DNA from: Bryobacterales bacterium
GTDB lineage: Bacteria > Acidobacteriota > Terriglobia > Bryobacterales > UBA6623
Assembly (NCBI GenBank): GCA_965237575.1
Contig: CBDEGI010000004.1
Span: forward strand, 3,541,963 to 3,605,962
Length of the DNA: 64,000 nt
Direction of reading: 5' to 3'
Each line of letters opens with the position of its first letter. Within the stretch, counting starts at the first letter, position 1. Shown here piece by piece: positions 8,519 to 57,592 of the stretch. The notes beneath the pieces are model-generated. The model was given only the letters and a program-made list of their open reading frames with translations. It ran no database searches and was not told the DNA's origin. A program made the position numbers and the translations under genes.

Positions 8519-9490
8519 ATGCCAATCACAAGACGGGACATGCTGCGCTTGCTGGGGACGGCGGCCGCGCTACCGGCACTGCCGTCCTTCGCCGCCGGCA
8601 AGACCATGCGCGGCGCGTTCATCATTATGGCGACGCCCTACACCGAGGCCAAGGAGGTCGACTACGAAGGCCTGGCCGGCGAGGTCGACTTCCTCGACAA
8701 GAGCGGCGTGCAGGGTATGGTGTGGCCGCAGTTCGCCAGCGAATACCCTTACCTGAAAAAGGAAGAGCGCTTTCGCGGAATGGAAGTGCTCGCCAAAGCC
8801 GCCAAGGGGAAGAAGCCGGCCCTCGTACTGGGTGTCCAGGCGCCGAACACCGAGCAGATGCTCGAGTTCGCCCGCCACGCCGAGAAGGTCGAGCCGGACG
8901 CCTTGATCGCTATGCCGCCCAAGGAGGCGACGTCACTCGACGACTATCGCGTCTACTATAGCGAGCTTTGCAAGCTCGCCAAGCGGCCGGTTTTCATCCA
9001 GACGACGGGTGGCGCGAACGACGTGGAGGCCACTGTCGAATTCATCATCGAGATGGCAGAGAAGTTCCCCAACTTCGGCTATATCAAGGAAGAGTACAAG
9101 CCGGTCATGGAGCGCATGCTAAAGCTCGCCAAGTACCGGCCGAAAGTGATCAAGAGCGTATTCAGTGGCGCGGCCGGACGCGGCTGGCCCTATGAGATGC
9201 GGTATGGCCTCGACGGGACCATGCCCGGCGCGATGTACGCCGACATCTACGCCTTGCTGTGGGAGCTACATCTGAAGGGTGACCGCGACAAGATTCGCGA
9301 GGTCTTCAGCAAGCTGATGCTGATGATCAACCTCGACGCGCACATCCCGGGCGTGCGCAATTACATGTTCAAGCGCCGGGGCATCTTCAAGACCACCAAG
9401 TCGCGCCGGGGGGACTACACCTGGTCCGAAGACGCCATCGCCGAGATCGAGCACAACTTCGCCGCGCTGAAACCGTACTTGCGCGTCTAG
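8519..9490 (+). CDS. Dihydrodipicolinate synthase/N-acetylneuraminate lyase family protein with Tat signal
   Basis: The track ORF is 8465..9490. I prefer the ATG at 8519, preceded by gaggaa, which gives MPITRRDMLRLLGTAAALPALPSFAAG. The body resembles the DapA family (FIIMATPYTE..VDYEGL...GVQGMVWPQ). Confidence 0.8.
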   Translation: MPITRRDMLRLLGTAAALPALPSFAAGKTMRGAFIIMATPYTEAKEVDYEGLAGEVDFLDKSGVQGMVWPQFASEYPYLKKEERFRGMEVLAKAAKGKKPALVLGVQAPNTEQMLEFARHAEKVEPDALIAMPPKEATSLDDYRVYYSELCKLAKRPVFIQTTGGANDVEATVEFIIEMAEKFPNFGYIKEEYKPVMERMLKLAKYRPKVIKSVFSGAAGRGWPYEMRYGLDGTMPGAMYADIYALLWELHLKGDRDKIREVFSKLMLMINLDAHIPGVRNYMFKRRGIFKTTKSRRGDYTWSEDAIAEIEHNFAALKPYLRV

Positions 9491-12493: not shown

Positions 12494-12606
12494 TGTGGCC
12501 TTTCCAACGCCCTTTCAGGGCTCCCGCCGCAAGAGGGTCCGATCCCCCGGGGTTCCGCCTGACGGCGTCACCCCGGGCTAACATCCAACGCCGCTTCGCG
12601 GCTTGC
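12494..12606 (-). repeat. REP-c element (~112 bp), copy 1 (inverted relative to the copy at 51364)
   Basis: Its reverse complement aligns end to end with 51364..51475. Shared blocks are gccgcgaagcggcgt.ggatgttagccc.ggg and cgggagccctgaaagggcgttggaaa. The internal stem shows paired substitutions between the copies. Confidence 0.7.
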
Positions 12607-12737
12607 CGCGTGCCAGCAGGGTCGAGATCCGCGCTACGGGCTGATCGAGCCCGGCATCTGGCTGTACTCTGCCGCACACTACCGAAACCACGGCGGCCTC
12701 CCCGCCGTAGGAGTAGAATGAGGCTGGGAGAAAACCG

Positions 12738-13601
12738 ATGCGGCCCACACGATTGAGACGCAGACCGATCAGACACTGCGCGGTATGGGCGATGGTTCTC
12801 GCCCTCGCTCCCGCGGGCCTGTGGGGCCAAACCGACCCTGCGCCCCCGCCCGACCCGCCGAAACAGCAGGCCGAGGGTCTTCAAACCCGCGAACCGCCTC
12901 CCGAAAACAGCATCATCGTGCCCCGCGGCACCCGCGTGCCTCTGGTACTCATCAACAGCATCAGCACCAAGAACTCCGCCGCCGGCGACCTCGTCTATCT
13001 CGAATCCGTCTATCCCGTCGCGATTGGCGGACGCATCCTGATCCCCCCGGGCACCTATGTCTCGGGCAAGGTCACCAGCGTCAAGCGTCCAGGGCGCATC
13101 AAGGGCAAGGGCGAGCTGTTCCTGCGTTTCGAGAACATGATTCTGCCCAACGGCACGATTCGCGACTTTACCGCGCGCGTCGGGGCCCTTGACGGACGTT
13201 CTCCCGAGGGTTTCGAGCGCGACGAGGGCAAGATCACCAGCGAATCGAGCAAGGGCAAAGACGCCGGTACCGTGGCGCAGACCACGGCGGCCGGCACGTC
13301 CGTCGGAGCGATCGCGGGCTCGGTTGGCGGCCGGGCCGGCATGGGTATCGGCCTCGGCGCGGCGGCGGGAGCGGCGGCCGGGCTGGCCACGGTACTGGCG
13401 TCGCGCGGTCCCGAGGCGGTGCTCGAGAAGGGTACCCAGCTCGATATGGTGCTCGACCGCGACCTCTATTTCACCGAAGCCGAAGTCACCTTCGACGACC
13501 CCTTGCGCCGTCCCGGCGGCAACGGTGGTGGTGGGGGACCCGACCCCAACCGCAACCGTTCCAACTCCGGCGGCAGCCTCGGCCGCTTCCCGCCGTTCTA
13601 A
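12738..13601 (+). CDS. Secreted hypothetical protein with a Gly-rich tail (core faintly TrbI/VirB10-like)
   Basis: 287-aa ORF with a signal peptide (AVWAMVLALAPAGLWG). Core sequence IIVPRGTRVPLVLINSISTKNSAAGD...ILIPPGTYVSGKV...ILPNGTIRDF; C-terminal GGNGGGGGPDPNRNRSNSGG. Confidence 0.65.
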   Translation: MRPTRLRRRPIRHCAVWAMVLALAPAGLWGQTDPAPPPDPPKQQAEGLQTREPPPENSIIVPRGTRVPLVLINSISTKNSAAGDLVYLESVYPVAIGGRILIPPGTYVSGKVTSVKRPGRIKGKGELFLRFENMILPNGTIRDFTARVGALDGRSPEGFERDEGKITSESSKGKDAGTVAQTTAAGTSVGAIAGSVGGRAGMGIGLGAAAGAAAGLATVLASRGPEAVLEKGTQLDMVLDRDLYFTEAEVTFDDPLRRPGGNGGGGGPDPNRNRSNSGGSLGRFPPF

Positions 13602-14483: not shown

Positions 14484-17192
14484 CTATTCGGAGTCGGAGC
14501 CCCCGGTACTTCTACTTGTCCGTAGAACCGCTTTGAAGATCTCCGTAAGGTTTTTGCCCGTGATTCTGTCGACGAGTAGTGCGACGAACGCCAGGGCCAG
14601 AATAGGAAATACCACGCTGACAACGCCCGTCGTGACGTTGTCAAGTCCGAGACTGGTCGCGACAAAAACCGAACCGGCAAATAGCCCTAGGATCGACACC
14701 ACTGCCACAACCAACAACAGGAAGATATGGCCAGGTTTGATCTGCGTATCTGTGCTCCGCGGCAACTCCGGTCTTGGTGTGTCTGGCCGCCGCCCTAGCT
14801 CAAATTCTCGGATGCGCTTGTTCTTGTCTTCGATGCCGTTGAGCAGCTCTTGGACCGCGTAGGGCCGCTCGGCTTCATCGGGCATGATCGTGTCGAGGCC
14901 TCGTTCTTCGTGATTGAGGAGGGTTCGATAGCCCACTGTTACGCCCGGCTTGTCGGGCAGTGGGACCTTTTCCTGGGCACCGATTCTCGGGATGGTGGCG
15001 TGGATCCGGCGGAACTCTTCGCGGATCACAGCCAAGGCGTTGCGGCGGAGGGCCAGCACGGGACCGCGAACCGAAACAAAGACCTTGCCCACACTGGTCT
15101 CACCGCGCACCAGGACCCGGGAACCGTCGATCTCTAAGACCACCCCGCTGCGCCAGTACGTGGGGTTACTGGTGAGTCTGTCGTGGGTTCTGACGATGAA
15201 GCGCGGGATAACGCCGTCGGGCAGGACTTTGTAGTGGTACTCGAAGTTGAGTGCGTCTCCTTCGTCCCAGTTCAGGTCGGGCTCGTTCGGCAGCAGCAAC
15301 TCGGGGATCAGAAACTTCGTCCCGCCGGAATCAGGGAAGGCGAAGCACAGCTCGAACTGCCTCATCATGTCTACGATGAACTGCTGCCGCTCCGGTGGGT
15401 ACGTCCCCGGATCGGCTAACACGCCCGCGAGCTCCAGCTTCTCGAGAACACCGCCGTGCTGCATCAGCATGTGGTTGTTGAGGATCTTGTAGACACCGCC
15501 GGTGACCCATTCCGGATTGAGAACCTTGGTCTCCTGCAGTTGGTAAGGGCTGTCGGGATCGTCGAAGTTCAGGACATTGCCAAGATCATGAAGAAACCGC
15601 AGGAGCACTTTTTGATCGGCCTCCCTTTCGACGTTTCGCCTGTTGCAAATCGCGAGGTAGTCTGTGAGATCGATGAAGTCTTTGTTGCGAGCCTCTTGCT
15701 CCAACTCTTCCTTAACCTGGATGTAGCTCACCGGGACCCTATTGTAGACGTGCGGCAGCTTGTGAATCTGCTCTTGGATCGCTGCTTTCAGCTCGGCAAT
15801 GCCTTCGCCATCCGGGCAGGAGGTCTTGAAGAAACCAACCACGTTCGGCGCAAAGTCCTTGCGTAGGCGCGTTTCGTTCAGATCAAGGTGGTTCGGCGGC
15901 TCATGCTTGTTGATGACGATAAGGACAGGCGAATCGCCGCCGTAGCTTTGGATGACGCGCAGCCAGTAGTGGATGTTGCTTTCGTTTTCGCCTTTCCGGG
16001 CGTCGAGTACCAGCAGGTAGAGACTGCGCTTGGTCAAGAAAAACTGATGCGTGGCGTGCATGATCTCTTGCCCGCCGAAATCCCAGATGTTGAGGCGGAT
16101 ATTGTCGGCAATAGGGCCAGCTTTGCCTGGGATTTCCCACCGGCTGATGTTGATGCCTTCGGTTTTCTCCTCCTGCGGATTGAACGTGTCGTCTACCAGT
16201 CGATTCACAAGCGACGTCTTGCCGACAGCGCCTTGGCCAACCAGCAGGATTTTGGCTTCGTTGAGGGGCCGGGTTGTCTCTTCGCGGCCACGGAAATAAT
16301 AAGCGAGAATGTCGGCGGCGTCCTTGGGGGTGGCTTTCCCGTCCACCAGCTCACCAGGATCCGGTCCAAGGATTTCCGGCGGAATGTCCAGCGCGGGGTT
16401 TCCATGCAAGAACAATTGCTTCAGCTTCCCCAGTCGTCGCATGGAATCCGGCAACGCGGTCAACTTGTTGTCCGACACGTCGAGAGACTGGATCCCAACC
16501 AGTTGTCCGATCTCCGGGGGCAGGTTCGTCACCCCAGGCAGATCGCGAAGTACAAGCACCCGGAGCTTGCCGAGCCGCCTGATCGCACTGTTGACCGCGA
16601 CGAGATTAGGCCAGTCGACAAACGAGACCATGGCAAGGGTTCCCAGCATAAAAACGATGTCCGGGACACGAGGAGACAGCTGGCCCCCGACCACCAACCC
16701 TCGCGGGACCCCGCCACTGACGACACACAGGGATGAACCTAGACCCTCGGTCTCAGAGACCCCCCGTCTGCCCCTACTCGGCCCCTGGGGCGGAGCGAAC
16801 GTGATGGAAGTTCTCACCCCACGAGGATCCGAGCGGATGGCCTCAGCCATCAGATAACTCACAAAGGGGAATTGTTCCTGCTCACCCGCACCCCAATACC
16901 CCGCCAACGCGAGGGGGCTGACATGATAATCCAGGGTGGGCGCAAGAGCGCCGTCTAGATTTTCAACGTATTTCAGATGGCCTGGACGGCGCCACACGTT
17001 CACATCGATCAAACGACCATCGGCATCATCGACAACCAACATGACACCCTGGAGCTCCTCAGCTATCTGCTGGAGCAAGGGGCCATACTCCCCACCACGC
17101 AAGTCGTCGGCGCCGTAGTATCTGACGGTTCCCATAGCCTGAGCCGACGACCAGTATAGACCCGTTCCGCCCTTTTTGTCACGGTGGCCCAT
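14484..17192 (-). CDS. ROCO-type GTPase: unknown N-domain, LRR, Roc (Ras-of-complex) GTPase, COR, C-terminal 2-TM anchor
   Basis: This is part of the 1015-aa track ORF 14484..17531, and residue numbers refer to that ORF. LRRs occupy about aa 315-385 (LGKLRVLVLRDLPGVTNLPPEIGQLVGIQSLDVSDNKLTALPDSMRRLGKLKQLFLHGN). GTPase motifs are the P-loop GQGAVGKTS (nt 16238..16212), G3 DFGGQE and G4 NKHE. The COR-like region carries VPVSYIQVKEEL...LRFLHDLGNVLNF...VLNPEWVTGGVYKIL. Two hydrophobic helices lie at about aa 935-988. The start is uncertain: the first ATG after the RT remnant is at 17192 (MGHRDKKGG), with another at 17135. Confidence 0.8.
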   Translation of the reverse strand: MGHRDKKGGTGLYWSSAQAMGTVRYYGADDLRGGEYGPLLQQIAEELQGVMLVVDDADGRLIDVNVWRRPGHLKYVENLDGALAPTLDYHVSPLALAGYWGAGEQEQFPFVSYLMAEAIRSDPRGVRTSITFAPPQGPSRGRRGVSETEGLGSSLCVVSGGVPRGLVVGGQLSPRVPDIVFMLGTLAMVSFVDWPNLVAVNSAIRRLGKLRVLVLRDLPGVTNLPPEIGQLVGIQSLDVSDNKLTALPDSMRRLGKLKQLFLHGNPALDIPPEILGPDPGELVDGKATPKDAADILAYYFRGREETTRPLNEAKILLVGQGAVGKTSLVNRLVDDTFNPQEEKTEGINISRWEIPGKAGPIADNIRLNIWDFGGQEIMHATHQFFLTKRSLYLLVLDARKGENESNIHYWLRVIQSYGGDSPVLIVINKHEPPNHLDLNETRLRKDFAPNVVGFFKTSCPDGEGIAELKAAIQEQIHKLPHVYNRVPVSYIQVKEELEQEARNKDFIDLTDYLAICNRRNVEREADQKVLLRFLHDLGNVLNFDDPDSPYQLQETKVLNPEWVTGGVYKILNNHMLMQHGGVLEKLELAGVLADPGTYPPERQQFIVDMMRQFELCFAFPDSGGTKFLIPELLLPNEPDLNWDEGDALNFEYHYKVLPDGVIPRFIVRTHDRLTSNPTYWRSGVVLEIDGSRVLVRGETSVGKVFVSVRGPVLALRRNALAVIREEFRRIHATIPRIGAQEKVPLPDKPGVTVGYRTLLNHEERGLDTIMPDEAERPYAVQELLNGIEDKNKRIREFELGRRPDTPRPELPRSTDTQIKPGHIFLLLVVAVVSILGLFAGSVFVATSLGLDNVTTGVVSVVFPILALAFVALLVDRITGKNLTEIFKAVLRTSRSTGGSDSE

Positions 17193-25266: not shown

Positions 25267-25305
25267 TCAGAGCCGCGGGCGTCAGCCCGCGTTGAGCAGC
25301 CGCGT
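25267..25305 (+). repeat. REP-b hairpin element (TCAGARCCGCGGGCG..A.CCCGCGTTGAGC family), copy 1
   Basis: tcagagccgcgggcgtcagcccgcgttgagcagccgcg; the stem is CGCGGGC/GCCCGCG. Confidence 0.6.
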
Positions 25306-39306: not shown

Positions 39307-39359
39307 CTTGGCGCAAACAGACACGTCCAACCACAGGCCCGAGCCCGGAAGGGCGTCAC

Positions 39360-39388
39360 AATCCTAGCCCATGGATTCATCCATGGGT
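39360..39388 (-). repeat. Inverted partial copy of the 102-bp repeat (palindrome-containing core)
   Basis: aatcctagcccatggattcatccatgggt is the reverse complement of acccatggatgaatccatgggctaggatt (39445..39473). Confidence 0.8.
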
Positions 39389-39427
39389 GTCGGTCCGCAG
39401 CGCCCTCCGCCCGCCCCGAGGCTGTTC

Positions 39428-39529
39428 TGATGCAGCCGTTCGGAACCCATGGATGAATCCATGGGCTAGGATTGTTCGATCCTTGCAGGGTCGACGGATC
39501 GATACGCATAACCAACGAGTCCGCACACC
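39428..39529 (+). repeat. 102-bp direct repeat, copy 1
   Basis: Base-for-base identical to 39570..39671. It contains the 20-nt palindrome cccatggatgaatccatggg. Confidence 0.9.
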
Positions 39530-39569
39530 GCTCAACGACCCCGCGCAACAGCTGCCCGGCGAAACAAGC

Positions 39570-39671
39570 TGATGCAGCCGTTCGGAACCCATGGATGAAT
39601 CCATGGGCTAGGATTGTTCGATCCTTGCAGGGTCGACGGATCGATACGCATAACCAACGAGTCCGCACACC
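39570..39671 (+). repeat. 102-bp direct repeat, copy 2
   Basis: Identical to copy 1 and separated from it by a 40-bp spacer. Weaker similarity continues about 12 bp beyond the repeat. Confidence 0.9.
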
Positions 39672-46530: not shown

Positions 46531-46604
46531 ACAATCTGTACGCAAGCCTTGCTGCCCGCCCGACGTCCCGGCCTGACGCGACCGTGCCATTCAACGCTTC
46601 AGAG

Positions 46605-46624
46605 GCGCGGACGGAAGTCCGCGC
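46605..46624 (+). terminator. GC hairpin with tetraloop about 75 nt after kdsA (weak terminator candidate)
   Basis: gcgcggac-ggaa-gtccgcgc followed by tt. Confidence 0.3.
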
Positions 46625-46682
46625 TTGCGCTAGGGCACTCGCATGCCCTCACCTCCGTTAGACTCGACATAAGGAGAAGAGC

Positions 46683-48474: not shown

Positions 48475-48506
48475 GCTGTCCTTGTTAGAGCCACCGTAAC
48501 GATCGT

Positions 48507-48929
48507 CTATTGCTCTCGCGGGACGATCACGAAGCTTCGATCTCGTCGAAAGCGGTAAACCGAGAAATCTCTGCGATCGAGCGTGAAGATGACATCGATG
48601 CCTTCACGCTCCGCGAGATACACCAAAGCCGCGTCGGCCAACTGTGCGCCTAGCTTTTGGTAACGCCCAACGAACTCGGCGATCCACGGAAAGCAAGCTG
48701 CATCAAGATCCGCGACTCGAAAGAGCTCATCCTCTAAGCTTTTGAAAAGCCTGCGGAGCCCGAGAGGTTGGTGGCGCAACAGCCAAGCCGCTTCCGTAAC
48801 AACCGGCCAGCACGTTAAAAGCGGCGTCTTGATGCTGCGCAGCTCTTCCATGCAGATCTCGTGATGAGAATCCCGGGTCGATGCGATCGCGACCATCGGC
48901 CCAGCGTCCACCAGAACCTGCTGCCTCAT
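48507..48929 (-). CDS. vapC: PIN-domain toxin (VapC-like)
   Basis: 140-aa ORF with N-terminal VLVDAGPMVA and acidic residues spaced as in a PIN domain. It overlaps the upstream RHH gene by 4 bp. Confidence 0.8.
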   Translation of the reverse strand: MRQQVLVDAGPMVAIASTRDSHHEICMEELRSIKTPLLTCWPVVTEAAWLLRHQPLGLRRLFKSLEDELFRVADLDAACFPWIAEFVGRYQKLGAQLADAALVYLAEREGIDVIFTLDRRDFSVYRFRRDRSFVIVPREQ

Positions 48930-49177
48930 GAACGTCCGAATCCTTCGAAGTGGTCCGGGTTCGTGCTCAAGTCGGGTGGCGCGTCCTTGACGCAGCCGAG
49001 GAATTTCAGCCGTTTCGCGACATCATAGGCACTCTCGCCCTGATCGCGCGAGGCGAGATACTGCACCAGCGCCTCGCGAACTAGCTCAGACTCGCGTTTC
49101 CCACTCGCGACGGCTTCCGCCGCCAAGTTGGCTCGAAGCTCCTCGCCGATTCTGATTGAGATGCGATTGGATGGCAT
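48926..49177 (-). CDS. Ribbon-helix-helix (CopG-like) antitoxin
   Basis: ISIRIGEELRANLAAEAVASGKRESELVREALVQYL. Confidence 0.8.
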   Translation of the reverse strand: MPSNRISIRIGEELRANLAAEAVASGKRESELVREALVQYLASRDQGESAYDVAKRLKFLGCVKDAPPDLSTNPDHFEGFGRS

Positions 49178-49679: not shown

Positions 49680-49826
49680 ACTCCTCAGATCTCCTTCGAC
49701 TACCTACGCAACCGAGCCGTGACCGTCAGGGAGCGGTCCGGCACGAACCTTCCCTTCCCTCCAAAGCCGCTAGACCCGAAATAACAGTCGGGCTTCAAGA
49801 GATCACTCCCGTTGAGAATAGCGGAC

Positions 49827-51205: not shown

Positions 51206-51363
51206 CGACCGGCATCCTGGTCCGCCCTCGATCCACCAGTCCAAACCGGTCGCCCCGGCCCGTGGCACACGCCCGTGGCGTGCCGAGCCCCGCTCGGCTC
51301 TTGTCCCTCGTTCGCCGAGACCTGTTCTAGAAAAGCGCACGACCGCCTGCTCGGGCAGCCGCG

Positions 51364-51475
51364 AAGCGGCGTAGGATGTTAGCCCAGGGTGAAGCCCGTG
51401 AGGGCGCAACCCTGGGTACCCACCCATTCAGACCGGGAGCCCTGAAAGGGCGTTGGAAAAGCGGCCAGGCGCCGA
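51364..51475 (+). repeat. REP-c element (~112 bp), copy 2
   Basis: ggcagccgcgaagcggcgtaggatgttagcccagggtga...aaccctgggta...cgggagccctgaaagggcgttggaaaagc; inverted relative to 12494..12606. Confidence 0.7.
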
Positions 51476-51480
51476 CTCTC

Positions 51481-53043
51481 TCAGTCCGCCGCCACCCCTT
51501 CCTCAAGCGGCAGCCGCGACGAATCACGCCGAGGCGGGAAGAAATTCCGCAACGTTTTCTCCGACGGTGCCTCGGTCACCAACGACACTCCCACCATCGC
51601 AACCAGCGACGCCGCAAAAATCGTCGCCACCGGCATCATCCCCAGGAACAGGAACCCGCGATCTACCCCGTAGCCGCTTTCCCGGAACAGCAGGAACCAA
51701 ACGGCCGCCATCGTTACCACCGACGCGATCGCTCCCGCCTTCGTCGCGCGCCGCCAATAGAGCGACAGGAACACCAGCGGGAACAAGCTCGCGAAGCCGC
51801 TGAAGCACCACACGCCCAGCGTGAAGACCGCCCGCGGCTCCGCCAGCGACAGCAGGTAGGTGATCCCGACGATCGCGATGATGAAGATCCGCGCCAGCTT
51901 CACGCGCTGCTTGTCGTCAAACCGGCCCTCGCCGAAGTGGTGGATCACAATGTCGTTCGTGAACATCGTGCCCAGGCAGAAGAACTGCGAATCGAGCGAC
52001 GACATGATCGCCGCCAGAATCCCCGCCCCCAGCAGGCCCCCCAGCGCAGGGCCCGTCAGCTTGGCGACCATGATGGCGAGTTCCGTGTTGGGCCGCGTGT
52101 CTTCGGGCACCACCAACGACCCGTCCCCCATCGTCGCCGACGTCGCCCACACGCCGATCAGCACGCAAGGCACCCACACCAGCATGATGAAAATCGGGTG
52201 TGCCACCACGGTGAGGCGGAAGGTTTTGGCGGAGCGTGCTGTCAGCCAATGCTGGAACAGGTGCGGGAACATCCCCACCGACAGCGGGATGAAGCAATAC
52301 GTTAGGAAGTGTAACTGTGTGATCTCCTCGCCCCGCATCAGGCGCTCGGGATGCGTTTCGAGCACCTTCGCGCTCGCCGCCGTCAGCCCGCCCAGCGCCG
52401 ACGAAATCACCCAGAAGGCGATAATGCCGGTGACCATGAACACGCATGTCTGAAACGTATGGGCCCAGGCGGCGGCCCGCAAGCCGCCGTAGAAGATATA
52501 GAACAGCACGACGCCGCAGATCACCAGCCCGGTCAGCCACGGCGGCACCGCACCGCCGGTTTCCGGAAAGACATCCGGCGCGGCGCCCCCCGTCAGGGCC
52601 AACACCACGGCGCGCGCTCCCAGCAGCCCGGTCAGCAGATACGGAATGACCAGGCCCACCAGGATGGGGAACAGCATCGTCCCGAGCGCATCACTTTCAA
52701 AGCGGCTGCGAAAGTACTGCACCTGCGTGACGAACCCACAGCGTTTGCCGAGCGCCCACAGCTTGATCCCCACGAAGAAGAACACCGCCGCGTGGATCAG
52801 CCCCGACCACGACGCCATCATGCCGTAGACGCCGATGCCGGCCCGATAGGCCTCGCCCGAACTGCCCACGAGCGCGAAGGCGGTCATCGTGGTCCCGAAC
52901 ACCGACATCAGCAGGATCACCGGACCGATCGAGTGACTCGCCAGGAAGTAGTCCTTCGCCGTGCCGCGGAAGAATCGGTTGCTCGCCAGCCCGAGAGCCA
53001 GCAACACGGAAAGATAGACCGCCATTACGACAAGCTGCGTCAT
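51481..53043 (-). CDS. Sodium:solute symporter (SSF) family transporter
   Basis: 520-aa polytopic ORF with SSS-like helices. It is coupled by a 4-bp overlap to the DUF3311 gene. Confidence 0.9.
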   Translation of the reverse strand: MTQLVVMAVYLSVLLALGLASNRFFRGTAKDYFLASHSIGPVILLMSVFGTTMTAFALVGSSGEAYRAGIGVYGMMASWSGLIHAAVFFFVGIKLWALGKRCGFVTQVQYFRSRFESDALGTMLFPILVGLVIPYLLTGLLGARAVVLALTGGAAPDVFPETGGAVPPWLTGLVICGVVLFYIFYGGLRAAAWAHTFQTCVFMVTGIIAFWVISSALGGLTAASAKVLETHPERLMRGEEITQLHFLTYCFIPLSVGMFPHLFQHWLTARSAKTFRLTVVAHPIFIMLVWVPCVLIGVWATSATMGDGSLVVPEDTRPNTELAIMVAKLTGPALGGLLGAGILAAIMSSLDSQFFCLGTMFTNDIVIHHFGEGRFDDKQRVKLARIFIIAIVGITYLLSLAEPRAVFTLGVWCFSGFASLFPLVFLSLYWRRATKAGAIASVVTMAAVWFLLFRESGYGVDRGFLFLGMMPVATIFAASLVAMVGVSLVTEAPSEKTLRNFFPPRRDSSRLPLEEGVAAD

Positions 53044-53291
53044 TCGGCGGAGCCCTCCCCGCTCTTGGCGAAATCGTCTGGCTTGCCTTCAGCGAAGGCC
53101 TCCACGTCATGGGGCCAGGCGTAGCGGAGCGCCAAGTACCAAAGGAACGCGGCCACCAGCGAGTAGACCGCGTGGTAGGCCAGCCCCACCGGTAGAAACC
53201 CGAACACGAGCGTCGTCGAGTCCCAGAGCCAGAAGTCCTGGTGCAGGACGCCAAGCGCGATCAGCGCGGCATACACAGCCTTTTTCTTCAT
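53040..53291 (-). CDS. DUF3311 small membrane protein (SSS partner)
   Basis: Internal ATG at 53291: MKKKAVYAALIALGVLHQDFWLWDSTTLVFGFLPVGLAYH. Confidence 0.8.
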   Translation of the reverse strand: MKKKAVYAALIALGVLHQDFWLWDSTTLVFGFLPVGLAYHAVYSLVAAFLWYLALRYAWPHDVEAFAEGKPDDFAKSGEGSAE

Positions 53292-53456
53292 CGAGAATCC
53301 CGAGAGCCCAGCGGCAACCGTAGCCGCCGCTTGAGCAGGAAATAGTCTACCATCCCGCACCGCTGCGGACAGGCGCCGCCTCTTCCCAAAGTCGAACGTA
53401 AGCCACAGGCGACCGCTTCGTTCCCCAATCCAACGTGACCGTGCCCGACCCGACAC

Positions 53457-53500
53457 TCAGAGCCTCGGGCGGGAGCCCGCGTTGAGCCATCGCTCAACAC
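53457..53500 (+). repeat. REP-b hairpin element, copy 2
   Basis: tcagagcctcgggcgggagcccgcgttgagccatcgctcaacac; the tail gttgagccatcgctcaa is identical to that of copy 3. Confidence 0.65.
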
Positions 53501-53626
53501 CGCGCTAGCTGCGCGGCTGACGGTTCCAGCGTTATTTCACGCCTTCCAGACCCACGACCACCTCCGGCCCGCCTCAACCGCGCCACCGCCCACAACTGAG
53601 CGGGCGCGCGGGCTCAGCCCGCGCCG

Positions 53627-53664
53627 CGGACGGGAGGGGCTGTGAAAAAATTGGGGACTGTCAC
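53627..53664 (+). repeat. REP-e element (GTGAAAAAAT core), copy A
   Basis: cggacgggaggggctGTGAAAAAATtggggactgtcac. Confidence 0.6.
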
Positions 53665-53713
53665 AAGCGGCGGGACATAAGTCTCCTATCTTCAACGTCC
53701 GTCAGGCCGCGGC

Positions 53714-53750
53714 TGACTGTCCAGCATTTTTTCACGGCCCCGGAGTCCGC
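53714..53750 (-). repeat. REP-e element, copy B (inverted; forms a long hairpin with copy A)
   Basis: The reverse complement reads gcggactccggggccGTGAAAAAATgctggacagtca. Confidence 0.6.
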
Positions 53751-53772
53751 GGTTCCCCCTCGGTGCAACCTG

Positions 53773-54093
53773 ATGCATCCGACCACGGGCTGCCTGAGGG
53801 CCAACGTCGCCCCGGCGATGGGAGGCGAAATCCGCAAGACCCGCCCGGTCGTGATCGTGAGTCGCGATGCCTCCAACCGCCATCTCAATCGGGTCCAAGT
53901 CGTCCCGTTGACCAGCAGCACGACAAAGCTTTACCCTTGCGAGGCCTACGTCAGCCTCGGGAAGCAGACCGCGAAGGCCGACCAGCTTACGACGGTCTTG
54001 CAAAAACGCCTCCGCAACCACATCGGCCTTCTTTCTCCCGAAGACATGGACAGCGTCGACCGCATCATCCGCCTCCAACTCGATCTGGCTTGA
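53773..54093 (+). CDS. mazF: MazF/PemK-family endoribonuclease toxin, with no adjacent antitoxin gene
   Basis: 106-aa ORF; GGEIRKTRPVVIVSRDASNRHLNRVQVVPLTSS...KADQLTTV. Confidence 0.8.
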   Translation: MHPTTGCLRANVAPAMGGEIRKTRPVVIVSRDASNRHLNRVQVVPLTSSTTKLYPCEAYVSLGKQTAKADQLTTVLQKRLRNHIGLLSPEDMDSVDRIIRLQLDLA

Positions 54094-54128
54094 CCCATCC
54101 CTAACAGCCGACGCCGCACTTCCCCTCA

Positions 54129-54160
54129 CGGACGCGCAGGTGTGAAAAAATCGGGCCTGT
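54129..54160 (+). repeat. REP-e element, copy C
   Basis: cggacgcgcaggtGTGAAAAAATcgggcctgt. Confidence 0.55.
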
Positions 54161-54304
54161 TAATTCGGCCTCTTCTTCCACCTTTCCGAAGGGACCGGCG
54201 CCGTGCTCTTCTGCCCCTGCGGCGAGCGCACGGGTTTAACCAGCGCCGCCGCCCCATACAGGCGTTGTCCTGCCCGAGTGGTAGTGTAGGGGTTTTGCTA
54301 CCCC

Positions 54305-54508
54305 ATGACCTTTGATCAGGTCCGCAAGCGTACTATCATCGCCCTGTTTTCAGACGATCAGCTGATGGATCAGCTTGTCCTCAAGGGCGGAAACGCACTG
54401 AGCCTCATTCATGGAGTCAGCTCTCGCACGTCCCCAGACCTCGATTTTTCGCTGACGGGAGACTTCGAGGATTTCGAACAAGCCAAGCGAAGGATTTTTC
54501 GCGTCCTC
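54305..54508 (+). pseudogene. N-terminal ~68-codon fragment of an AbiEii/AbiGii (DUF1814) nucleotidyltransferase toxin gene
   Basis: MTFDQVRKRTIIALFSDDQLMDQLVLKGGNALSLIHGVSSRTSPDLDFSLTGDFEDFEQAK, after which the frame runs into transporter DNA. Visibly more AT-rich than the flanking sequence. Confidence 0.65.
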
Positions 54509-54509
54509 A

Positions 54510-55512
54510 CTCCCCAAGGTCTACGCCGCCTCGCTCGTCGTGATGGCCGTCGCCTTCTTTCTGTTCACGCACACTAAGCTGGCGGCCGGCGGCCAATCCA
54601 AGACGCTCGGCGAGCGCCTGTCACCCCTAAAGCACGCGCGCGTGTGGCGATTCGGCCTCTATTACTTCCTCGTCTTCGGCGGCTTCGTCGCACTGGCGCA
54701 GTGGCTTATCCCCTACTACGTGAATGTCTACGCGATGAGCGTGGCGATGGCCGGTTTCATGGCGTCGATCTTCAGCTTGCCGTCGGGTGTTATCCGCGCG
54801 GCGGGAGGCTGGATGTCCGACAAATTCGGGCCCCGCCCGGTGATGCAGTGGGTGCTGGGCTCGTGCGTGCTGTGTTGCGGCCTGTTGGTGATTCCGCAGA
54901 TGGACATCTCGTCACCCGGCAGCGGCGTGATGGCCCGTAGCGCGGGTGTTGTTCAGTCCGTTGAAGATGGGCGCTGCCCATCACGATCGTCGCCACGTTG
55001 GGTCTGATGAAGCTGATCCCGGGCGAGGTGGCTGTGGGGTTGAAGCGGCAATTCAGCATCTTCAACGCCAAGCACAACTGGATCATGACCTGGCTCTACA
55101 TCATGACCTTTGGTTCGTTCATCGGCTTCTCGATGGCGTTCCCGCTGCTGATCCGGGTCGTGTTCGGTACGATGGCCGACGGCCAGACCGCCAATCCCGA
55201 GGCCCCGAACCCCTTCACCTACGCCTGGCTCGGGCCGCTAGTAGGTTCGTTGATTCGTCCCGTGGGCGGATGGCTCTCCGACAAGTGGACTGGCGCCAAG
55301 GTGACACAGCTTTCGACAGCCGTGATGATCCTCTCCACCCTGGGCGTCGCCCACTACGTCAAGCTGGCCAACGGCTCGGACACGCCACAGGAATTCTTCT
55401 TTCCGTTCCTGGCTCTGTTCTTGATGCTGTTTCTCACCAGCGGCATCGGCAACGGCTCGACGTTCCGCATGATCGGCGTCATCTTCGAGCCGGCGCAGGC
55501 CGGGCCGGCCGG
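54510..55512 (+). pseudogene. Two non-contiguous fragments of a NarK/NasA-type MFS nitrate/nitrite transporter gene, in different frames
   Basis: Fragment A (frame of ORF 54540) reads PKVYAASLVVMAVAFFLF...RFGLYYFLVFGGFVALAQWLIPYYV...AAGGWMSDKFG. Fragment B (frame of ORF 54998, open from 54965) reads [31 protein letters not shown]...GGWLSDKW...[16 protein letters not shown]. Confidence 0.7.
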
Positions 55513-55521
55513 CCTCAATCT

Positions 55522-55917
55522 GCTGGCCGAAGATCCGCGGCCCTCGCCGCCTTGCTGCTCGGCGCCGTCGCCGTCGCCTACCAGATCGCTACCGGCACCG
55601 GCACATGGGGCCTCAACAAGACGGTCGGCTGGGCGTTCGACATCACGAACTTAGTCTTCTGGATCGGCATCGGCCACGCCGGCACGCTCATCTCGGCCGT
55701 CTTGTTCCTGCTGCGACAGCAGTGGCGCACCTCGGTCAACCGGGCCGCCGAGGCGATGACCATCTTTGCCGTGATCTGCGCCGGCCTGTTCCCGGTCATC
55801 CACATGGGCCGTCCTTGGCTCGCTCATTGGATGCTCCCCTACCCCAAGATGCGCGGACCGTTGTGGGTGAATTTCCGGTCGCCGCTGGTGTGGGATTTCT
55901 TCGCGATTGCCACATCC
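55522..55917 (+). pseudogene. Internal fragment of an NrfD-family quinol-interacting membrane subunit gene (ActC of alternative complex III-like)
   Basis: In the frame of ORF 54946: [75 protein letters not shown]...[16 protein letters not shown]. Both the N- and C-terminal parts are missing. Confidence 0.7.
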
Positions 55918-55924
55918 CTGAAGA

Positions 55925-56270
55925 GACGACGTACTTCCTCTCGCGCCTCGCCGGCTTCTGGGAGCCGGTGTTTTATCTGAACTTCCTGTTGAACTGGGCG
56001 ATCCCCTTCTTCGTCCTGCTATCGGTGCGCGGTAAGCGCAGCCCCAACCTGATGCTGAAGGCCTGCTGGGTAGTCCTGGTGGGCCGTTGGGTCGACCTCT
56101 ACTGATGGTCCTGCCGCCGTTCACGGGCGGCAACCCGGTATTCGGCATCTGGGAAGTCGGCATCGCCGCCAGCGCAGCAGCCGTCTTCTTTCTAGCGCTG
56201 TTCAAGGCCCTGGCCGCCGCCTCGCCAGTACCCCTCCGCGACCCCCTCTTGCAAGAGAGCTGCACTATCA
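55925..56270 (+). pseudogene. C-terminal fragment of an ActF-like/NrfD-family membrane protein gene with an internal frameshift
   Basis: [49 protein letters not shown], then a stop. The sequence continues in another frame as LMVLPPFTGGNPVFGIWEVGIAASAAAVFFLALF...PLRDPLLQES. Confidence 0.5.
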
Positions 56271-56316
56271 CAACTAGCTTCGGGTCCCGCCGCATCCACT
56301 CGACGGGCCATTCATA

Positions 56317-56360
56317 TCAGAACCGCGGGCGTGAACCCGCGTTGAGCCATCGCTCAAGAC
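56317..56360 (+). repeat. REP-b hairpin element, copy 3
   Basis: tcagaaccgcgggcgtgaacccgcgttgagccatcgctcaagac. Confidence 0.65.
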
Positions 56361-56446
56361 CAAACGAGCTTCTGTGCCCCAATCCGCCCCAAATCCACCC
56401 CCCCCAAGTCCCAGCCCACAACAAAACCGTTGATACAATCAGACCT

Positions 56447-57592
56447 ATGCTCAAGCGGGAAAACTGCCGCGAACGCCAAGCCCGGCTGCTCAAAATCTGC
56501 GAAAACGAACAACTCGACCTCGTTGTTCTCACGCATCCGAAGACCGTTTACTACTTCTCCGGCGTGCTTGTCGGCGACGCCGCGCCGAACGCGTTCCTGA
56601 TGAATGCATCGGGCAAGAGCGTGCTCGTTACGCAGGCCCCCGTGGGCCGCCCGCCCGAGGCCCCGCCCTCAGCCGCCGACGAGACCGACCTCTACGCCTT
56701 CCACAGCATGGAGCACGACAACGTAGCCACCCGCTGGACCACCGAGACCGCCGCTCTCGTACGCGCCGCCGCCGCCCGCCTGTCCCCCTCCGGCGGCGCT
56801 GTCGGCCTCGAGTTCGACTCGGCTAACTACGCCATCGGTGCGGCCCTTTCCGAGACGGCGAATGGCCAGCCGGTCAACCTCACGCCCCCGCTCGATCAAA
56901 TGCGGCGCCAAAAAGATCCCGACGAAATCGAGTGCATGCGGCAGTGCGTCGTGCTGGTGGAAGCCGGGTTGGGCGCCATCAAGGCGCGCCTCGAGCCCGG
57001 CATGACCGAGTACCGCGCTTACTCGATCTACTACGAGGCGATGGTCGCGAAGGCCGAAACCTCCGTCGTTCTCGCCGGCGACTTCGCCTGCGGCAAGCGC
57101 AGCATTCGGGGCGGCGGCCCCCCGACGGACCGCCGTGTGCAACTGGGCGACCTCTACATCTTTGACACCTTCCCGCTCTACCAGGGCTACATGTGCGACT
57201 TCACGCGTACGTTCGTCGTCGGCCGCCCCACGCAGATCCAGCAAGACGCCTGGGCCCACGTCATGGAAGCGCACGAGATCGCCCGCCGCACCATCGCTCC
57301 CGGTGTACCCGCCAAAGAGGTCTACCACGCGCTCAAGACCCACCTCGACAAGTTCGAGCCCGCCAAGGACTCCTTCTGGCACCATGCCGGCCACGGGGTC
57401 GGCATGAACGGCTGGGAACTGCCCTGGCTCACGCCGGGCAGCGAGCACGTCGTCGAAGACCGCGAAGTGCTCGCCTGCGAGCCCGGCCTTTACGCCGACG
57501 CGATGCAGGGCGGCATCCGGCTCGAACATAACTACCTCGTCACGCCCGAAGGCGTCACCGCGCTCGACCACTTCCCGATGGACCTCACTTGA
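56447..57592 (+). CDS. M24-family Xaa-Pro aminopeptidase/creatinase-like peptidase
   Basis: I prefer the ATG at 56447 (MLKRENCRERQARLLKICENEQLDLVVLTHPKTVYYFSG). C-terminal pita-bread motifs are DFACG..., HHAGHGVG and LEHNYLVT. The track ORF 56087.. reads through the pseudogene tail and REP-b. Confidence 0.85.
   Translation: MLKRENCRERQARLLKICENEQLDLVVLTHPKTVYYFSGVLVGDAAPNAFLMNASGKSVLVTQAPVGRPPEAPPSAADETDLYAFHSMEHDNVATRWTTETAALVRAAAARLSPSGGAVGLEFDSANYAIGAALSETANGQPVNLTPPLDQMRRQKDPDEIECMRQCVVLVEAGLGAIKARLEPGMTEYRAYSIYYEAMVAKAETSVVLAGDFACGKRSIRGGGPPTDRRVQLGDLYIFDTFPLYQGYMCDFTRTFVVGRPTQIQQDAWAHVMEAHEIARRTIAPGVPAKEVYHALKTHLDKFEPAKDSFWHHAGHGVGMNGWELPWLTPGSEHVVEDREVLACEPGLYADAMQGGIRLEHNYLVTPEGVTALDHFPMDLT

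Follow-up and report, generated by a model that had tools for sequence, protein, structure and literature searches.

What were the gene pieces that lie head to tail at positions 53457-56360 of the stretch analysed here, and how did they come to abut one another? The stretch, called the window throughout, is 64 kb of a Bryobacterales (Acidobacteriota) genome, and coordinates are window positions unless a contig is named. Between two copies of a hairpin repeat it carries an orphan mazF toxin gene, the 5' end of an abiEii gene, and out-of-frame pieces of narK1, narK2, actC and actF, the former two encoding NarK family transporters and the latter two subunits of alternative complex III (ACIII). 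Our analysis indicates that the interval 53464-56277 is, with high probability, the relic of a cluster of nitrate reductase (nar) and ACIII (act) genes that was lost in situ and eroded by lineage-specific deletions. A preliminary description of the locus had offered as its first option a respiratory locus eroded by serial deletions with toxin-antitoxin (TA) genes alongside; this option is now strongly supported by the collinearity of the pieces and by four different lineage-specific remnants at the same locus.

The mosaic is real and not an assembly artefact, because nine independent assemblies from at least seven samples, several of them long-read, agree on it. These assemblies, retrieved through proteins identical to the M24 peptidase of the flank or to the mazF product, differ in assembler and read type and include long-read contigs of 803,938 and 4,555,109 nt. 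They match window positions 53000-57000 at 99.7-100% nucleotide identity, every junction being common to all, and differ from one another by a few isolated single nucleotide polymorphisms and one homopolymer indel. In genome collections, all matches of the M24 peptidase belong to metagenome-assembled genomes (MAGs) of Bryobacterales (Acidobacteriota), with amino acid identity from 98% down to 54%. Relatives used below are labelled L (contigs or loci) and P (proteins).

The pieces were identified by Pfam and NCBIfam profile searches, a sequence search of the PDB and three-frame translation, which bore out the inventory and approximate positions of the preliminary description. Apart from a short filler, the respiratory pieces lie on the plus strand: narK1 at 54510-54970 (codons 173 to ~325 of 509), narK2 at 54971-55506 (codons 287-464 of 525), an NrfD/ActC-type actC piece from about 55544 to 55913 (codons ~44-167 of 472), and actF at 55914-56277 (codons 251-371 and the stop codon). 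The filler, a 40-nt inverted copy of narK2 on the minus strand (55501-55540), sits between narK2 and actC. Both narK pieces were compared with the NarK family model TIGR00886, where they cover positions 211-312 and 215-359 and score 53.8 and 109.5 bits where the cut-off is 311.7, neither containing the full major facilitator superfamily (MFS) fold of 12 transmembrane segments. Since the C-terminal half of the model is covered by each of them, they derive from two different tandem genes, a correction to the earlier account, which had listed a second NarK piece in another frame. The narK1 fragment is ~97% identical in amino acids to an intact 511-aa NarK1 (P0377), which fixes its right end at ...SVEDG; the narK2 fragment has intact relatives (P0002 and P0003) at 91-92% amino acid identity.

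The actC piece matches ACIII subunit C (6BTM_C residues 46-168, E=1.3e-54), and the translation of the actF piece, repaired at two 1-nt deletions, matches the C-terminal end of subunit F (6BTM_F residues 345-463, E=2.9e-12). Set beside the known complexes (6F0K from Rhodothermus marinus, 6BTM from Flavobacterium johnsoniae, 6LOD from Roseiflexus), both pieces are bona fide subunit sequence, but only 26% of actC and 33% of actF are left and no actA, actB, actD or actE sequence was found in 53457-56360. As what is left of actC and actF is truncated and out of frame, no ACIII can be made from this locus. The reading frames along the pieces (start coordinate modulo 3) are 2, 0, 2, 1, 0, 2, 1, changing at every junction as had been described; a change at all four large junctions is expected by chance about 20% of the time and is unremarkable. 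Each piece lacks its start, its end or both, as pseudogenised relics do, while no in-frame stops were found inside the fragments. Open reading frames (ORFs) of 154, 215 and 80 aa called over the junctions are gene-calling artefacts.

Where the pieces came from is answered by a clean 416-kb metagenome contig (L020), which carries the genes narG-narH-narJ-narI-narK1-narK2-actA-actB-actC-actD-actE-actF intact. It was reached through the ActB of another contig, L010, which in turn was reached via the closest relatives of the narK2 piece. The L020 products measure 509 aa (NarK1), 525 aa (NarK2), 472 aa (ActC) and 371 aa (ActF); actA-F stand in canonical order, and ActC and ActF match the 6BTM/6F0K subunits with E=1e-177 and 1e-57. 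Tandem narK1-narK2 genes beside narGHJI are known, for example, from Pseudomonas aeruginosa (narK1K2GHJI), and a NarK1-NarK2 fusion from Paracoccus. L020 resembles these systems in having two different NarK-family genes in tandem beside the nitrate reductase genes, but its order is narGHJI-narK1-narK2 followed directly by the ACIII genes, and in the window only mid-gene and C-terminal stumps of the two narK genes are left.

Aligned to this contig, the window pieces are strictly in the same order and orientation, with which L010 agrees. Window 54510-54961 (narK1 codons 173-323) corresponds to L020 6622-7073 at 73.5% nucleotide identity; 54971-55506 (narK2 codons 287-464) to 8541-9076 at 83.8% nucleotide and 91.6% amino acid identity; 55553-55913 (actC codons 47-167, homology being traceable to ~55544) to 13183-13543 at 82.5% and 92.4%; and 55914-56278 (actF codon 251 to the stop) to 16390-16756 at 72.5% nucleotide identity. 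In the window, 1.77 kb remain of the 10.1 kb that these pieces span in the intact cluster, the missing stretches being 1,467 bp, 4,106 bp and 2,846 bp long. The fragments had been called unrelated; this was wrong, since four of the five (narK1, narK2, actC and actF) belong to a single contiguous cluster and keep its native order.

The four junctions between the pieces are sharp, with 0-4 nt of microhomology. The first (J1, abiEii|narK1) lies exactly at 54509|54510 and joins abiEii codon 68 to narK1 codon 173; it is placed by two related loci (L040/L041), which continue abiEii from the very next base where the window switches to narK1. The second (J2, narK1|narK2), placed at 54970|54971 with the help of intact P0377, joins narK1 codon ~325 to narK2 codon 287 with the loss of 1.47 kb. 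The fourth (J4, actC|actF), at 55913|55914, joins actC codon 167 to actF codon 251 with the loss of 2.85 kb and a possible microhomology of 3-4 nt (GCCA). The third (J3, narK2|actC) joins narK2 codon 464 to actC codon ~44 with the loss of 4.1 kb and is the only one with filler, so the pieces abut mostly without spacers, as had been noted, except here. The filler (55501-55540), after narK2 nt 55506-55509, corresponds, in reverse complement, to a narK2 segment whose usual place is 50-90 nt downstream from the breakpoint (minus-strand matches at L010 2242-2203, 85%, and L020 9165-9126, 80%); it overlaps the forward narK2 by a palindromic microhomology of ~9 nt of the GGCCGG type, and actC comes next. 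From its sequence, J3 could be the signature of a template or strand switch at the GGCCGG palindrome or, equivalently, of an 89-nt inversion followed by one deletion.

Recombination in register between paralogues (ActC with ActF, or NarK1 with NarK2) was considered and rejected, the joins being at non-homologous positions (ActC 167 to ActF 251; NarK1 ~325 to NarK2 287). Smaller lesions lie in actF, where the frameshift reported at 56103 was confirmed as a 1-nt deletion after that position (TGG to TG), and a second 1-nt deletion, after 56259 (AGC CTG to AGCTG), had been missed; the latter had masked the conserved C-terminus ...ESLHYHN directly before the stop. The same actF sequence is present in L040, L038 and L037 without these two deletions and continues upstream across J4. 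A different small lesion was seen at another actF site, where one extra G (GCCGAG to GCCGGAG) shifts the frame in L037 (~345), L040 (~9790) and L010 (~9517) and is lacking in L020 (~16293) and L038; an old lesion common to the three, a site prone to mutation or an artefact of sequencing may explain it.

That the cluster once stood at this very place is indicated by the same locus in relatives, five lineages of which have actF in one continuous stretch with the M24 flank. One of them, the JGI contig L037, has a contiguous actF upstream of the M24 gene. In L038 (and likewise L039) a DUF4340 block lies on the left and M24 on the right, and the 3.7 kb between them contain, in this order, a gene for cytochrome c, a 3' remnant of narG, a fusion of narH (its first ~139 codons) with the 3' part of actD, and then actE and actF, both intact, the latter of 416 aa. 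The sister species (L013/L014; M24 peptidase 96-98% identical in amino acids) is homologous upstream of M24 back to window position 56262; it keeps the right-hand hairpin repeat and the last 15 nt of actF, fused straight to the stop codon of the DUF4340 gene, and equals L038 minus exactly one 3,710-bp segment. In these two branches, L013 and L038 are 97% identical in the DUF4340 block and only 89% identical in the M24 block, a contrast that suggests recombination between lineages.

Yet another relic is present in L040/L041, whose sample also yielded a contig 100% identical to the window, and which share both window flanks at 95-96.5% nucleotide identity. They are without window positions 53382-54281 (the left-hand hairpin repeat, local inverted repeats and mazF). 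Their abiEii runs ~110 codons past J1, contains a TGA stop and has lost 50 nt by slippage between two copies of GATTTTTCGC. It passes straight into an actF remnant longer than that of the window; this remnant starts at about codon 130 of 371 and has its own stop and frameshifts without the two 1-nt deletions of the window. A further narK1 junction is indicated by P0376, a 98-aa ORF on a 2.17-Mb contig. Taken together, narG, narH, actD, actE and the 5' part of actF survive in L038, narK1, narK2 and actC in the window, and more of abiEii and actF in L040. Since each lineage keeps parts that are lost in others, the common ancestor probably carried the whole cluster here, and the deletions would have been independent and lineage-specific. 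These comparisons, and an inspection of the junctions, had been proposed by the preliminary description; the former gave a collinear intact cluster and differing remnants, the latter 0-4 nt of microhomology, with the ~9-nt palindromic one at J3.

The decay appears to be recent, in agreement with the initial impression. Against L020, the ratio of nonsynonymous to synonymous divergence (dN/dS) is 0.056 for actC, 0.08 for narK2, 0.12-0.29 for narK1 and ~0.2 for actF, at dS of ~0.8-1.2. Such low ratios (0.06-0.29), with no in-frame stops, imply that almost all of the divergence accumulated under purifying selection and that inactivation came late. This agrees with published work, in which bacterial pseudogenes are described as short-lived and removed by deletional bias (Kuo & Ochman 2009, PMC2817411; Kuo & Ochman 2010, PMC2916853; Danneels et al. 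2018, PMC6054270).

We suggest the following course of events. The ancestor would have had a complete cluster of narGHJI, narK1-narK2 and actABCDEF just upstream of the M24 gene, and in the branch of the window and L040 TA genes (mazF and abiE) would have come to lie on its left side. Once the cluster was no longer maintained, it would have been removed piecemeal by illegitimate, microhomology-level deletions under deletional bias; in the window lineage four such events would have left the collinear stumps bounded by J1-J4, and the two 1-nt deletions would have hit actF later. Loss of selection as the cause, and the separateness of the deletions, are the parts of this course that we infer. The relic is probably non-functional, except perhaps for the mazF ORF, which is intact.

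Several observations weigh against this reconstruction. A fully intact cluster at this exact locus was found in no relative recovered, and the intact clusters of L020 and L010 have another right neighbour (Amidohydro_2 and DUF1326); the ancestral state here is therefore reconstructed from complementary remnants. The left neighbour varies by branch, being a DUF4340 block in L038, L013 and L014 and a DUF3311 block in the window and L040, so at least one larger, unreconstructed rearrangement must also have happened. Finally, an allele carrying only some of J1-J4 was not seen, and a single event with multiple breakpoints could therefore account for them.

Such a single event is the first alternative, which we consider unlikely: one replication-based event with serial forward template switches would have made J1-J4 at once, as in microhomology-mediated break-induced replication (MMBIR) or fork stalling and template switching (FoSTeS). 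Junctions formed by template switching at microhomology are known as quasi-palindrome or MMBIR-type junctions. J3 is like them in containing an inverted copy of nearby sequence attached through a GC-rich palindromic microhomology, and the 40-nt templated insertion with its ~9 nt of palindromic microhomology is typical of template switching; the shortness of the microhomology at all junctions and the sharing of every junction by the nine assemblies, with no partial intermediates found, fit a single event as well. However, only one of the four window junctions is of this type, the others being plain deletions, and J3 itself may equally be an 89-nt inversion plus one deletion. Independent deletions are moreover common at the locus, namely the 3.7-kb deletion of L013/L014, the 50-nt slippage and the abiEii|actF join of L040, and the narH|actD join of L038, to which P0376 adds a further narK1 junction. 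With independent single deletions this common in the siblings, serial events are sufficient. It is likewise doubtful that the junctions and filler reflect one replication restart with multiple template switches (chromoanasynthesis-like, in a dispensable operon), or that a deletion hotspot flanked by REP-b and insertion sequence (IS) elements operates here at a rate above the genomic background.

The second alternative turns on the hairpin repeats, termed REP-b. Copy 1 (53457-53510) and copy 2 (56317-56370, in the actF-M24 intergenic region), both on the plus strand, form a 54-nt direct repeat with 83% identity, two small hairpins and an identical 22-nt core, for which no match is expected in shuffled sequence; the same-orientation pair with an identical tail, first noted in the preliminary description, is thus confirmed. 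The two copies could be the attL and attR ends of an island (TA, nar and act genes) that inserted itself between DUF3311 and M24 and decayed afterwards, or REP-b could drive mosaic recombination. Either version is improbable in our judgement. In their favour, the repeats lie exactly at the borders of the lineage-specific segment (homology with the sister species stops at 53463, where it keeps the first 7 nt of copy 1 followed by an IS1595-bearing segment, and resumes at 56262), TA genes are typical island cargo, and the spot is a synteny breakpoint that is IS-rich in relatives. Against them, no integrase ORF was found and no tRNA or tmRNA gene in the whole window, so of the features of an integrated island (att repeats with an integrase, often at a tRNA) only the repeats are present.

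REP-b is also a dispersed hairpin-repeat family with the core CCAC-TCAGAG-GCGGGC-N4-GCCCGC, represented in the window at 25267-25297, 46599-46626, 53457 and 56317 and elsewhere at L025 15799, L030 11687 and L037 846. Its stem varies by paired, compensatory changes (GCGGGC/GCCCGC versus GCGGAC/GTCCGC), as in dispersed repetitive extragenic palindromic (REP) elements; searches for similarity to tRNA, tmRNA or known RNAs gave no matches. With at least four copies in 64 kb, two flanking copies can be a coincidence, even though these two share an extra tail. Copy 2 is ancestral, being present downstream of actF in all relatives (an orthologous copy stands at the same place in L013, L014, L037, L038 and L040), and its second hairpin is not conserved in L013/L014. 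Besides, L038, L013 and L014 have the DUF4340 block as left neighbour without REP-b there, and J1-J4 all lie outside REP sequence. The latter result also disposes of REP-mediated junctions and leaves the earlier proposal of illegitimate recombination between REP elements unsupported (0 of 4 internal junctions).

It is very improbable that the fragments were copied ectopically from intact genes at other places in the genome and captured as filler during break repair. The abutment of pieces without spacers would fit such an origin, but they stand in native gene order and orientation, and actF is contiguous with the M24 flank in the five related lineages. Among the matches listed (proteins of up to ~320 aa), the 4.56-Mb contig contributed a single NarK2-type one, namely the ORF of the fragment itself, and none of the best 120 ActB homologues came from that contig, which is weak negative evidence for the absence of a paralogous ActB in the same genome. 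Finally, a chimeric assembly or the wrong joining of reads that belong to different loci, suggested by the metagenomic source and by the frame changes at every junction and named as an option in the preliminary description, is practically refuted by the identity of the mosaic in nine assemblies of different assemblers and read types, including the two long contigs, and by the related alleles of other genomes.

The relic, read as the remains of a cluster lost in situ, lies at a rearrangement-prone synteny breakpoint. On its left, the DUF3311 gene (53040-53291, minus strand) and the SSF symporter gene after it (51481-53043), both identified by Pfam, form a conserved block that is homologous in relatives up to window 53297-53463; beyond this every relative differs, and the region beside DUF3311 often holds IS256, IS1595 or IS481, which is the basis for calling it a breakpoint. 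In GTDB genomes, L015-L019 beside M24 and L026-L031 beside DUF3311 each have a different content, often with IS elements, and no intact cluster was found next to either gene; for the ancestral state these loci carry no information. On the 8,957,806-nt chromosome of the sister species (L014/L025), the DUF3311 and M24 flanks of the window are ~260 kb apart over the record origin, and the left flank adjoins IS1595, IS256 and IS481 transposases and a TrbI fragment. A Y1_Tnp gene stands at the end of L040. On the right, the gene of the M24 (Xaa-Pro type) peptidase (56447-57592, plus strand) is the conserved neighbour of the locus across relatives; according to its orthologues, the true start is the ATG at 56447, giving 381 aa. 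The 495/501-aa "M24 peptidase" ORF reading through from 56087, inside the actF relic, to 57592 is a gene-calling artefact, its 495-aa version being called in five public assemblies.

The TA genes on the left side of the relic are themselves incomplete systems. The mazF gene (53773-54093, plus strand) is an open ORF of 106 aa that matches PemK_toxin (PF02452) with E=1.5e-18 and 67.4 bits, against a cut-off of 23.1, and aligns to residues 13-120 of MazF9 (6KYT) with shortened loops. It is absent from L040/L041. It had been described as an orphan and is one: no mazE was found upstream as an ORF or Pfam match on either strand of 53498-53772. The abiEii fragment (54305-54509, plus strand; codons 1-68) covers positions 6-59 of the 238 of model PF08843, and no AbiEi-like antitoxin ORF was found in 54094-54304. 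The composite of L040/L041 matches AbiEii model positions 6-122, and the gene is broken there too; a complete AbiE system is not present, only part of AbiEii being found and no AbiEi. Non-coding positions 53460-53800 and 54080-54330 gave no Pfam match to remnants of mazE, abiEi or narG.

Around mazF there is also a local repeat of ~40 nt with the core GTGAAAAAAT, in four copies at 53505-53545 (minus strand), 53636-53676 (plus), 53701-53741 (minus) and 54133-54173 (plus). A perfect 10-nt inverted pair brackets the gene, ATTTTTTCAC at 53726-35 and GTGAAAAAAT at 54142-51. The repeat was not found in the rest of the window or in related loci totalling ~400 kb, where the sole other match of the core was at L016 414-423 with one mismatch, and the non-coding parts around the copies had no Pfam or Rfam match. 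Judged by their sequence, the copies may be operators, ends of a miniature inverted-repeat transposable element or cassette boundaries.

Presence or absence of a TA gene was also seen near the relic: a PIN-domain toxin gene (48507-48929, minus strand), part of a small two-gene pair within 48476-48937, is present in the window and L040 and missing in the sister species (L023-L025) and L041, where a ribbon-helix-helix (RHH) gene stands in its place. Further repeats in the window include other small GC-rich families, namely GTAGGGGCACGGCATGCCGTGCCC at 1392, 7532, 51168 and 57617 and a 52-nt repeat at 49698 and 59215, and also a 100% identical 103-nt direct repeat at 39427-39529 and 39569-39671 with a 62-nt inverted arm at 39340-39401. 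Over a distance of 38.7 kb, 12498-12608 and 51352-51462 are linked by two pairs of inverted repeats, one of 45 nt (89%) and one of 29 nt (97%), with one arm just downstream of the SSF gene.

The locus is a clean, ordinary pseudogene relic, documented unusually completely; it is not a new kind of element. It resembles pseudogenes decaying by deletional bias, as portrayed in earlier studies (PMC2817411, PMC2916853, PMC6054270), in that unselected genes are removed, deletions outnumber insertions, young pseudogenes are still protein-like and related strains hold different remnants. Compared with what those studies describe, it differs in that one respiratory cluster of the 17-kb class is seen in four or more independent states of decay at the same locus, that the host belongs to a free-living soil or sediment lineage and is not a host-restricted pathogen or symbiont, and that one window junction contains inverted templated filler.

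The mechanistic weight of the finding is small, since the decay of an unused operon by deletion is a textbook case. What can be inferred about metabolism from these MAGs is affected, because the "MFS transporter" and "NrfD" fragments annotated here are not functional genes. Populations that co-occur in the same samples carry different remnant alleles, which offer a modest natural series in which the sizes of deletions and the types of junction can be measured for a free-living bacterium. For the organisms themselves, the locus documents that one clade of the uncultured Bryobacterales has lost both dissimilatory nitrate reduction and alternative complex III.

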